A DNA stretch of 64,000 nucleotides from Octopus sinensis (GCF_006345805.1 NC_043015.1:53320001-53384000); one strand, 5' to 3'; positions 4,632 to 51,562 are shown, numbered from the stretch's first letter. A program made the numbers and translations. The notes: generated from the letters alone by a model not told the origin.

Positions 4632-4797
4632 ATATATATATATATATATATATATAATATATATTATATATATAATAACAATTTAGGAATGGCCTGAACA
4701 GGCCATTCGTCCACCAGAAAGAGCAGCCATAACTCCAACCGCCAAGTAGTGTAATTCGGAAATAAGGTGAAAATTTAAAAACATTTACCCTAATTCA

Positions 4798-4898
4798 TCT
4801 TTTATACGATGCATCGTTTCGGTGTCTTTAATGATAGACCAGCTTAATTAAATTAAATTAAGCTAGTCTACCATAGGTCACACTTCATCAGTAAAAGA
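4798..4898 (-). ncRNA. Type I hammerhead ribozyme
   Basis: Reverse complement of the 5750-5850 motif. Confidence 0.88.
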
Positions 4899-5268
4899 AA
4901 CCTGGGGAGAGACGGATATACACGAGGCTACTGTATCAATGCCTCGGAATATCTGTCTTAAAATTTTCAAGACCAACGCATTCGCGCCAAACTTATCGGC
5001 AGCAATATAACTGCGATTCAATCTCAGAATTAGTCAGAAAATTATCAATTAATCAATTTAGGGTAGCAAAAAATTCAGTAAAAATTTGTCGCTACCAGCG
5101 GCCTAATGGAAAGAGAAAATAGTCAAAGACTAAATATGTATAAATATAACAATTTAGGAATGGCCTGAACAGGCCATTCGTCCACCAGAAAGAGCAGCCA
5201 TAACTCCAACCGCCAAGTAGTGTAATTCGGAAATAAGGTGAAAATTTAAAAACATTTACCCTAATTCA

Positions 5269-5368
5269 TCTTTTATACGATGCATCGTTTCGGTGTCTTT
5301 AATGATAGACCAGCTTAATTAATTAAATTAAGCTAGTCTACCATAGGTCACACTTCATCAGTAAAAGA
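5269..5368 (-). ncRNA. Type I hammerhead ribozyme
   Basis: Second tandem copy, reverse complement of the 5750-5850 motif. Confidence 0.88.
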
Positions 5369-5749
5369 AACCTGGAGAGACGGATATACACGAGGCTACT
5401 GTATCAATGCCTCGGGAATATCTGTCTTAAAATTTTCGGTTGGAGTTATGGCTGCTCTTTCTGGTGGACGAATGGCCTGTTCAGGCCATTCCTAAATTGT
5501 TATATTTAACATTTTAGTCTTTGACTATTTTCTCTTTTCCATTAGGCGCTGGTAGCGACAATTTTTACTGAATTTTTTGCTACCCTAAATTGATTAATTG
5601 ATAATTTTCTGACTAATTCTGAGATTGAATCGGCAGTTTATATTTGCTGCCGATAAGTTTGGCGCGAATGCGTTGGTCTTGAAAATTTTAAGACAGTATT
5701 TCCCGAGGCATTGATACAGTAGCCTCGTGTATATCCGTCTCTCCAGGTT

Positions 5750-5850
5750 TCTTTTACTGATGAAGTGTGACCTATGGTAGACTAGCTTAATTTAATTTAA
5801 TTAAGCTGGTCTATCATTAAAGACACCGAAACGATGCATCGTATAAAAGA
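5750..5850 (+). ncRNA. Type I hammerhead ribozyme
   Basis: Stem I TCTTTTA(5750-56)/TAAAAGA(5844-50); CTGATGA 5757-63; stem II GTGT/ACAC extended by a long hairpin; GAAAC 5828-32; palindromic stem III ACGATGCATCGT; GUA cleavage triplet 5841-43. Confidence 0.9.
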
Positions 5851-6231
5851 TGAATTAGGGTAATGTTTTTAAATTTTCACCTTATTTCCGAATTACACTA
5901 CTTGGCGGTTGGAGTTATGGCTGCTCTTTCTGGTGGACGAATGGCCTGTTCAGGCCATTCCTAAATTGTTATATTTATACATATTTAGTCTTTGACTATT
6001 TTCTTTTTCCATTAGGCCGCTGGTAGCGACAAATTTTTACTGAATTTTTTGCTACCCTAAATTGATTAATATATATATATATATATATATATTACGGAGA
6101 TGTACTTGCAATGCAAGTGACCTGATCTGAGCTCGTGTGCTGGAACGAAGACAATTGCAGCGTGGAAGGTGTTTATAAGCCATTTAAGAAGCACACAAAA
6201 TCCCTTAGATTCACTTCAACATTTAAATTGA

Positions 6232-6282
6232 TTTAGCAAAATATTTTCGTCGCTTTGAGATCGCGACCTGTTCGCTGACAAA
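6232..6282 (-). ncRNA. Variant minimal hammerhead-like motif (G3-C8 swapped core)
   Basis: Minus strand reads TTTGTCA-GCGAACA-G-GTCGC gatctcaaa GCGAC-GAAAATATTT-TGCTAAA; island 6092-6295 lies between (TA)n tracts. Confidence 0.45.
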
Positions 6283-6360
6283 ATTCCGTGCTGTTATATA
6301 TATATGTATATATATATATATATATTATATTATATATTATATATATATATATATATATAA

Positions 6361-49619: not shown

Positions 49620-49833
49620 GGCGGCGAGCTGGCAGAATTATTAGCACGCCGGGCGAAATTCTTAGCGGTATTCGTCTGCCGTTAAGTTCTGAGTTCAAAT
49701 CCCACCGAGGTCGACTTTGCCTTCATCCTTTCGGAGTCGGTAAATTAAGTAGCAGTTGCGTACTGGGGTCGATCCAATCGACTGCCACCCCCGCTCAAAA
49801 ATTTTCAGGCCTTGTGCCTAGAGTGGAAAAGAA
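49620..49833 (+). mobile_element. SINE family A
   Basis: GGCGGCGAGCTGGCAGAA...GGCCTTGTGCCTAGAG. Confidence 0.85.
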
Positions 49834-49986
49834 CTTTGGGATATATATATATATATATATATATATCAACAATCAAGGAACGGCCATAATAGGCCATTCA
49901 CCCACTAGAAATAACAGCCAAGCTTCAACCGCAAATAAAAGTCAATTCCGTAAACAGGAGAAAATTTAAAAACATTTACCCTGTAA

Positions 49987-50091
49987 TTTCTTATACGGTT
50001 CACCGTTTCATCTGCTGTTTAATGGTAAACTAACCTGATTAAATTAAATCAAGCCAATCTTCCATAGGCCCTCAGATTCTTCAGTAAGAAA
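49987..50091 (-). ncRNA. Type I hammerhead ribozyme
   Basis: Reverse complement of 50679-50783. Confidence 0.9.
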
Positions 50092-50678
50092 TAGCCACAA
50101 GTCGGAACAGATATTTTCACGAGGCATTTCCGACCCTGCCAAGGTAATATCTGACCTAAAATTTTCAAATCATCGCACTCGCGCCAAATTTATCGGCAGC
50201 AAATAAATATAAGCCGTCGATTCCATTACGGAATTAACCAGAAAATTCATAATTAATCAATATAGGGTGGCAAAAAAAATTACAGGGTAATTTACAGGGT
50301 AAATGTTTTTAAAATTTTCTCCTGTTTACGGAATTGACTTTTATTTGCGGTTGAAGCTTTGGCTGTTATTTCTAGTGGGTGAATGGCCTATTATGGCCGT
50401 TCCTTGATTGTTGATGTTGAACTTAAAAATGGTCTATGACTATTTAATTTTTTCCCACTAGGCCGCTGGTGGCAAAAGAATTCTACAGAATTTTTTTTGC
50501 CACCCTATATTGATTAATTATGAATTTTCTGGTTAATTCCGTAATGGAATCGACGGCTTATATTTATTTGCTGCCGATAAATTTGGCGCGAGTGCGATGA
50601 TTTGAAAATTTTAGGTCAGATATTACCTTGGCAGGGTCGGAAATGCCTCGTGAAAATATCTGTTCCGACTTGTGGCTA

Positions 50679-50783
50679 TTTCTTACTGAAGAATCTGAGG
50701 GCCTATGGAAGATTGGCTTGATTTAATTTAATCAGGTTAGTTTACCATTAAACAGCAGATGAAACGGTGAACCGTATAAGAAA
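50679..50783 (+). ncRNA. Type I hammerhead ribozyme
   Basis: TTTCTTA-CTGAAGA-ATCTG...CAGAT-GAAACGG tgaa CCGTA-TAAGAAA. Confidence 0.92.
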
Positions 50784-51171
50784 TTACAGGGTAAATGTTT
50801 TTTAAAATTTTCTCCTGTTTACGGAATTGACTTTTATTTGCGGTTGAAGCTTTGGCTGTTATTTCTAGTGGGTGAATGGCCTATTATGGCCGTTCCTTGA
50901 TTGTTGATGTTGAACTTAAAAATGGTCTATGACTATTTAATTTTTTCCCACTAGGCCGCTGGTGGCAAAAGAATTCTACAGAATTTTTTTTGCCACCCTA
51001 TATTGATTAATTATGAATTTTCTGGTTAATTCCGTAATGGAATCGACGGCTTATATTTATTTGCTGCCGATAAATTTGGCGCGAGTGCGATGATTTGAAA
51101 ATTTTAGGTCAGATATTACCTTGGCAGGGTCGGAAATGCCTCGTGAAAATATCTGTTCCGACTTGTGGCTA

Positions 51172-51276
51172 TTTCTTACTGAAGAATCTGAGGGCCTATG
51201 GAAGATTGGCTTGATTTAATTTAATCAGGTTAGTTTACCATTAAACAGCAGATGAAACGGTGAACCGTATAAGAAA
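51172..51276 (+). ncRNA. Type I hammerhead ribozyme
   Basis: Tandem copy of 50679-50783. Confidence 0.92.
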
Positions 51277-51562
51277 TTACAGGGTAAATGTTTTTTAAAT
51301 TTCTCTGTTTACGGAATTGACTTTTATTTGCGGTTGAAGCTTGGCTGTTATTTCTAGTGGGTGTGAATGGCCTATTATGGCCGTTCCTTGATTGTTGATG
51401 TTGAACTTAAAAATGGTCTATGACTATTTAATTTTTTCCCACTAGGCCGCTGGTGGCAAAAGAATTCTACAGAATTTTTTTTGCCACCTATATTGATTAT
51501 TATATATATATCTATATATATATATATATATATATATATATATGTATATGTATATATGTAAC

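Follow-up and report, generated by a model that had tools for sequence, protein, structure and literature searches.

Hammerhead-ribozyme retroelements of Octopus sinensis: candidate retrozymes with the insertion anatomy of Penelope-like elements

Metazoan retrozymes of the non-long-terminal-repeat (non-LTR) kind are known as tandem repeats of ~170-400 nucleotides (nt) without an open reading frame (ORF), each with one type I hammerhead ribozyme (HHR) that has a canonical short stem II and a palindromic stem III, with a GC content below 45%, and RNA circles have been demonstrated for them (PMC7229834). Their dependence on Penelope-like elements (PLEs) was proposed in 2020 (PMC7229834) and gained phylogenetic support in a 2026 preprint, in which vertebrate retrozymes, with units of 51-972 bp, were likewise concluded to be PLE parasites, from co-occurrence and from homology to a pseudo-LTR (pLTR) in Xenopus, no mollusc having been sampled (Li, Clavereau, Pollet, 2026; 10.64898/2026.07.22.740005). 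The three loci described here, A, B and C, lie in a 64,000-nt stretch of the Octopus sinensis genome (NC_043015.1:53320001-53384000; the window, in which positions are counted over the whole stretch). They share with the metazoan retrozymes the ORF-less tandems, the single type I HHR, the palindromic stem III, the low GC and a PLE as suggested helper, but their units are longer and their stem II is long; they are known from genomic sequence alone, and the argument for a PLE comes from the anatomy of their insertions. A, B and C display the features of non-LTR retrozymes that a sequence can test, and both this kind of element and its link to PLEs are already published.

PLEs are described as leaving an inverted 5′ copy and a one-sided tail, and as targeting microsatellites or (TA)n. 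The Poseidon element of Anolis cuts and extends both strands, two internal starts of its reverse transcriptase (RT) define the tail, and a dimer model has been presented (PMC11167929); it resembles A, B and C in having two RT starts downstream of the HHR and an AT-rich target, and differs in being autonomous and in its tail of 30-40 bp, whereas A, B and C have no ORF, a tail of ~100 nt and one site per arm. The Hydra-clade PLEs (Craig, 2021; PMC8557442) also target (TA)n and carry HHRs, but they encode an RT with an endonuclease, have no significant DNA likeness to our units and, in the case of Hydra-1_Obim, have an HHR with a short stem II that differs by eye from those of A, B and C. The non-autonomous Chlamys PLEs, such as MRC1, are likewise PLE derivatives with multicopy head-to-tail insertions, but they are algal, mostly lack a canonical HHR, and have a 3′ end like that of their autonomous families (PMC8557442). 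The words “inverted” and “opposite” are absent from the main text of PMC7229834, and no cephalopod retrozyme families were found in the literature searched, which did not extend to the supplement of Cervera 2020, where octopus repeats may be listed. Neither a ~100-nt two-site tail with strict pairing, nor a long-stem-II mismatch HHR, nor genomic evidence of a single-unit template was found in the same literature (Repbase, Dfam and subscription journals lying outside it). The enzyme and the template of animal retrozymes, and how PLEs complete their integration, are open questions in the literature examined.

At all three loci the insertion consists of two head-to-head arms inside (TA)n (Table 1), built from units of 471 (A), 489 (B) and 493 nt (C) with a GC content of 36%. 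The units of A and C are 73% identical and those of A and B 67% over 273 nt (blastn), while B and C give no blastn match, and MAFFT places B at 58-59% identity to A or C. A type I HHR pattern that allows a long stem II has seven matches in the window where chance would give 0.01 (A 3, B 1, C 3; three of the seven on the minus strand), with at least two consecutive tandem HHRs at A and C. In concatemers of four units the longest stop-free frame has 75 amino acids (aa) and the longest starting with Met 61 aa, and no ORF for an RT plus a GIY-YIG domain is found in these frames. A preliminary description of this DNA had proposed three loci of diverged units with conserved cores, one type I HHR with compensatory stems per unit, and no ORF; the loci, sizes, cores and cut sites are confirmed here, as are the other two points. 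Its tandem repeats stand for A and C, but the loci are head-to-head inversions and B holds ~1.1 units with a single HHR (tandem units of family B being seen in the genomic copy L082), and its view of the units as longer than those of most described animal retrozymes is weak, their length being unexceptional within the published 51-972 bp. The arms, the two fixed outer ends and their pairing within (TA)n, which form the main anatomy, had no place in it.

The outer ends of the insertions are not found at the ribozyme cut, from which the phase of the unit is counted (+1), but at two fixed sites, E1 and E2, ~130 and ~230 nt beyond it (C, +132 and ~+238; A, ~+130 and +228, which gives a tail of ~97 nt; B, ~+150 and ~+255), each lying 10-14 AT-rich bases past a hairpin, while the inner junctions between the arms are scattered. 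A blast end that placed E1 of family A at +145 was rejected, the alignment having run into TA, and the real end is near +130. In an unbiased sample of family C, formed by the 37 loci that contain the first 100 matches to a 31-mer, 28 loci carry both orientations, 16 have at least two HHRs in one arm, and all 65 defined E1 or E2 outer ends abut TA. Above all, E1 is paired with E2 in 26 of the 26 assignable two-armed loci of this sample (two further loci have one end unassigned), in 39/39 of a larger C set and in 11/11 of family A; no E1/E1 or E2/E2 insertion occurs among the assignable two-armed C and A loci, whereas a random choice of ends would pair E1 with E2 in about half. The ends of family B, which are too noisy, were left uncounted. 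To this are added 5′ truncation, partial tandems and an inverted 5′ copy, all of PLE type, as is the two-site tail, except that it measures ~100 nt rather than 30-40. Given the strict pairing, together with the two starts and the dimer model of Poseidon, we infer that a PLE dimer would twin-prime these insertions with one subunit at each site, and their mobilisation by a PLE appears very probable.

Searches covered the 2.72-Gb genome and gave 1025, 1876 and 1194 candidates for the three units, 39-40 of each being scored. The suggestion of a non-autonomous HHR retroelement family of the retrozyme kind finds its counterpart in ORF-less copies that number thousands over the superfamily and are dispersed. 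Identity among the full-length copies listed is 95-100% in family C, 94-98% in A and 83-91% in B, which points to B as the older family. Exact matches to the family-C 31-mer number 1538, and a generic HHR pattern is matched 3468 times, whereas neither reversed control gives any match. Several further subfamilies appear. Among the relatives, a family E (profile E 1e-7, 1580 candidates) has its ends 101 nt apart, and HHR-bearing head-to-head elements in (TA)n without a match to the A, B or C profiles occur at L170:3820-4320, L211:5764-6875 (with a period near 535 nt) and L218:7786-8900. In L002/L003, L176 and L214/L232, entire insertions or their flanks are tandemly duplicated, either by local duplication or as an assembly artefact. 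Four contig-only runs, presumed to be RNA, cover parts of the units; being uninformative on strand, ends, level and circles, they are not used as evidence, and they are dominated by the same very high-copy SINE-like (short interspersed nuclear element) repeat that flanks loci B and C (15530-15640, 49616-49830 and 51566-51796).

The ribozymes are unusual in their long stem II, the first pair of which is mostly mismatched. The stems named in the preliminary description are present, but the stem II that it gives omits the mismatch beside the core in A and B. Beyond the part named there, stem II passes an internal loop and extends as a long hairpin, so that it spans 56-75 nt. An A occupies position 10.1 in nearly every copy, and 11.1 is C in family A, A in B, and U or C in C, where the pair is A-U or A·C; since 11.1 varies opposite a near-constant A, pairing at the start of stem II is not conserved. 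A stem II base mismatch also exists in axolotl HHR_Amex2, which still cleaves (PMC7229834). The palindromic or almost palindromic form of stem III is one that permits dimeric folding in known HHRs. In 18 sequences drawn from the three families, pairing is kept in 96.8% of cases over 21 named pairs, 13 of which are changed on both sides (slid alignments give 34-39%, and 0 of 500 shuffles reach the score), changes which, coming from three related lineages only, are support rather than a test of significance. In family C the pair beside the cut passes from A-U to G-C in 19 copies, and the pattern is intact in 85/91 A, 25/34 B and 216/237 C copies, overlapping loci being counted repeatedly. These data support the view of A, B and C as an HHR retroelement superfamily under structural selection. 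The stable folding of the whole circular unit adds weak evidence (z of -10.6, -2.4 and -6.5 over 25 shuffles), as the antisense folds too (-5.6, -3.4 and -6.3). The custom pattern finds all seven HHRs. None is among the Rfam matches listed for the window, in which locus B was not scanned separately; the long stem II is the probable reason for this absence. A strict pattern misses families A and B because it demands the 10.1-11.1 pair. Elements with this HHR subtype, which escapes Rfam, are probably under-counted.

With regard to the template, the units of one insertion carry a single haplotype over both arms: of 506 site-by-locus tests, made on 13 polymorphic sites, 500 show a homogeneous insertion, when independent draws would leave ~259 mixed. 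Of 227 private substitutions, 189 are found in a single copy, 20 are partial and 18 occur in every covering copy, ten of these last being fixed over both arms (in L208, in 13 of 13 units). The lengths of 65 arms, which reach up to 10 units, fit one exponential (Kolmogorov-Smirnov p 0.85). Within arrays the variation has a star-like pattern, with 127 singletons against 16 shared variants in 19 larger arrays, sites near homopolymers excluded. Taken together, one haplotype, exponential arms and star-like variation imply that multi-unit arms arise at insertion and from one unit sequence, and a monomer circle is the template that would best explain this origin, an explanation we favour with moderate confidence. 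As for cleavage, L172 carries a 448-nt deletion variant twice in tandem, whose junction coincides with the cut site and involves 3 bases of microhomology, and the 5′ ends of family C cluster at the cut (7 against 2.8 expected, p 0.026, in the unbiased sample; 12 against 4.1, p 0.001, in all); both are hints that suggest cleavage in vivo, and the conserved ribozyme is probably active in self-cleavage.

Which PLE would lend its enzyme was sought among 150 scored of 5029 GIY-YIG candidates and 63-70 scored of ~30,000 Hydra-type candidates, the latter label being drawn from the CxCX5C linker that an old family and the query proteins possess. Some Hydra-type ORFs of the genome are intact, and its Hydra-type families resemble A, B and C in that they show copies arranged head to head, tails that are long, and HHRs with a mismatch or a long stem II. 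The HHR of a 727-aa family has an A·A mismatch, and its truncated copies have ends paired at +35/42 and +112 in four clean two-armed loci (two pairs of duplicate records merged, two ambiguous loci left out); a motif likeness between this family and the units was rejected as too weak for homology (E 0.16-0.45). The 3′ HHR of another family joins an A·C mismatch to a 4-bp stem II, an internal loop and a long hairpin, which is the build of family A, and a third family also has a long stem II. By reason of this matching build and of the paired ends, the Hydra clade is the likeliest, if unproven, source of the helper, an attribution we regard as reasonably probable.

The genome also holds a young PLE (L098, L211-L217) with many 781-aa RT/GIY-YIG frames and an upstream 479-aa frame, which we take to be Neptune-like from its CxxC linker. 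It has a minimal HHR with a U3-A8 core, resembling one reported for Cercyon of Schistosoma, and a tail that, read by eye, measures ~35 nt. At L213:6470-6933 and L231, a family-E element stands directly 5′ of a full-length two-ORF PLE of this type. Two matches from the search for a partner of the units were rejected, that in L213 being this family-E element, read as a common TA target and not as a partnership, and that in L129 (208-298) a separate family-C insertion in (TA)n, without HHR, which comprises the tail only (~90 nt).

A, B and C are likely to be non-autonomous retrozymes mobilised in trans by a PLE, most likely of the Hydra clade. If we accept this, the cycle could have the following steps: (i) an array would be transcribed, as we postulate; (ii) the HHR would cut the transcript into ~480-nt monomers, which a host ligase would circularise; (iii) an RT/GIY-YIG dimer of the PLE would bind E1 and E2, the sites, ~100 nt apart, being those seen at the ends; (iv) the endonuclease would cut both strands of the (TA)n target, and the 3′ ends would prime complementary DNA (cDNA) at E1 and at E2, in accordance with the end pattern seen and with the enzymology of Anolis Poseidon in vitro; (v) both RTs would circle one and the same template, each stopping at random after at most 10 turns; (vi) and finally, the truncated ends of the two cDNAs would be joined into the head-to-head insertion whose anatomy is seen. 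In its most specific form the proposal is tentative and somewhat less probable than not: that these are ~480-nt circular ribozyme RNAs with a bipartite loading site for a Hydra-clade dimer, each subunit starting at its own hairpin and the two, from opposite ends of a double-strand break, copying a single circle in rolling fashion, with a distinct HHR subtype of long stem II and mismatch core. If true, the genome would hold a direct record of twin-primed integration templated by circular RNA. The young and abundant ORF-less copies are a countable record of insertions, in which the pairing of one site per arm favours a dimer priming both ends of one break and the single haplotype over both arms favours a template of one unit, and a 480-nt RNA with two mapped starts, together with intact candidate enzymes in the same genome, makes for an easy test in vitro.

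Several observations weigh against this scheme. The mismatch that adjoins the core may reduce the activity of the ribozyme, whose covariation has the narrow base already mentioned; eight of nine Xenopus retrozymes failed to cleave in vitro (10.64898/2026.07.22.740005), HHR mutants of Anolis Poseidon were without effect on insertion in vitro (PMC11167929), and the 5′ ends of family A show no excess at the cut (1 against 1.4). The private variants fixed over both arms are ten against 189 singletons. No pLTR match to a unit, by profile or blastn, was found in 80 GIY-YIG loci or in 25 longer PLE stretches, nor any homology to the units in the flanks of four intact Hydra-type families, and in this genome the young Neptune-like PLE targets TA as well.

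A first alternative keeps the PLE insertion and changes the template, which would then be a linear multimeric read-through, or monomers in linear form linked up by template jumping. In that case the HHR would be a passenger or a mere trimmer of RNA, and the circle would be unnecessary. Donor arrays are themselves homogeneous, and a single haplotype would equally result from copying one of them as a linear multimer; cleaved linear RNA predicts 5′ ends at the cut, where some are indeed seen; and unprocessed RNA was the main substrate of Anolis Poseidon in vitro (PMC11167929). However, new private variants that have become fixed in every unit of the two arms require a bottleneck of a single unit, mixed arrays are only 6 in 506, and arms extend to 10 units with a length distribution unbroken at one unit, so that we consider a linear template unlikely.

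Very improbable is the reading of the loci as 5′-truncated copies, or pLTRs, of an unsampled autonomous PLE, which has in its favour the PLE type of the end signature and the small share of GIY-YIG and Hydra-type candidates scored, but which is opposed by HHRs recurring every 471-493 nt without an intervening ORF, in arrays that can reach 10 units, and by 28 of the 37 unbiased C loci, where the inner end joins an inverted second arm (the flanks of the other nine are left out). Retrozyme and Penelope pLTR had been set out beforehand as alternatives; both parts enter the present data, but joined, as ORF-less units with a full PLE insertion signature. Finally, an element mobilised as DNA (a miniature inverted-repeat transposable element (MITE) or foldback), or a satellite that grew by unequal crossing-over after insertion, with a fossil HHR, can appeal to long inverted repeats in TA targets that look like terminal inverted repeats and to the few variants that neighbouring units share in L194 and L208, but is already largely refuted by the end pairing and the variation within arrays, given two ends that differ and pair strictly, a random inner junction, exponential arm lengths, star-like variation and HHR pairs that covary even beside the cut, and we leave it a minimal probability.

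Table 1. Arms, ribozymes and end sites of the three loci in the window (unit positions counted from the HHR cut)
Feature	Position	Strand	Description
Locus A, left arm	4675..5437	-	1.6 units; 3′ end at E1 (~+130) against (TA)n at 4675; 5′ truncation at unit +308
HHR family A, left arm	4803..4891	-	type I pattern match
HHR family A, left arm, second	5274..5361	-	type I pattern match
Locus A, right arm	5437..6070	+	from unit +64 to E2 (+228), against (TA)n
HHR family A	5750..5850	+	7-bp stem I, core 5757, A10.1·C11.1 mismatch, long stem II, palindromic stem III, GUA cut after 5843
Family A site E1	5941..5973	+	GC-closed hairpin then ~12 AT-rich nt; putative first RT start
Family A site E2	6023..6070	+	hairpin then ~14 AT-rich nt; putative second RT start
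Locus B, left arm	15886..15953	-	68 nt, tail only, E2 end against TA-rich DNA
Locus B, right arm	15951..16492	+	~1.1 units, E1 end against (TA)n
HHR family B	16254..16340	+	4-bp stem I, core 16258, A10.1·A11.1 mismatch, GUC cut after 16336
Locus C, left arm	49865..50281	-	E1 end (+132) against (TA)n; 5′ truncated at +206
HHR family C, left arm	49992-50084	-	type I pattern match
Locus C, right arm	50289..51503	+	2.5 tandem 493-nt units, starting at unit +5, close to the HHR cut; E2 end (+238) against (TA)n
HHR family C	50678..50784	+	cut after 50776; minimum-energy fold shows stems I-III
HHR family C	51171..51277	+	cut after 51269

The window also holds remnants of the Hydra-type PLEs themselves. 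At 54392-54900 (minus strand) there is a decayed GIY-YIG fragment of the old family, with 9616 candidates in the genome; an exhaustive search yields longer homologues of it, where a simpler one yielded none, and the 3′ HHR of this family has a long stem II. At 11316-11562 the 3′ HHR region of a 717-aa family survives as a head-to-head remnant, 75-76% identical to L237. Other features are a long inverted-repeat element at 18091-18405, probably a MITE, with a sub-threshold match to Rfam MIR7533, and frame fragments at 26483-26905, 41099-41773 and 43853-44861 that by eye resemble the ends of the reverse transcriptase of long interspersed nuclear elements (LINEs).

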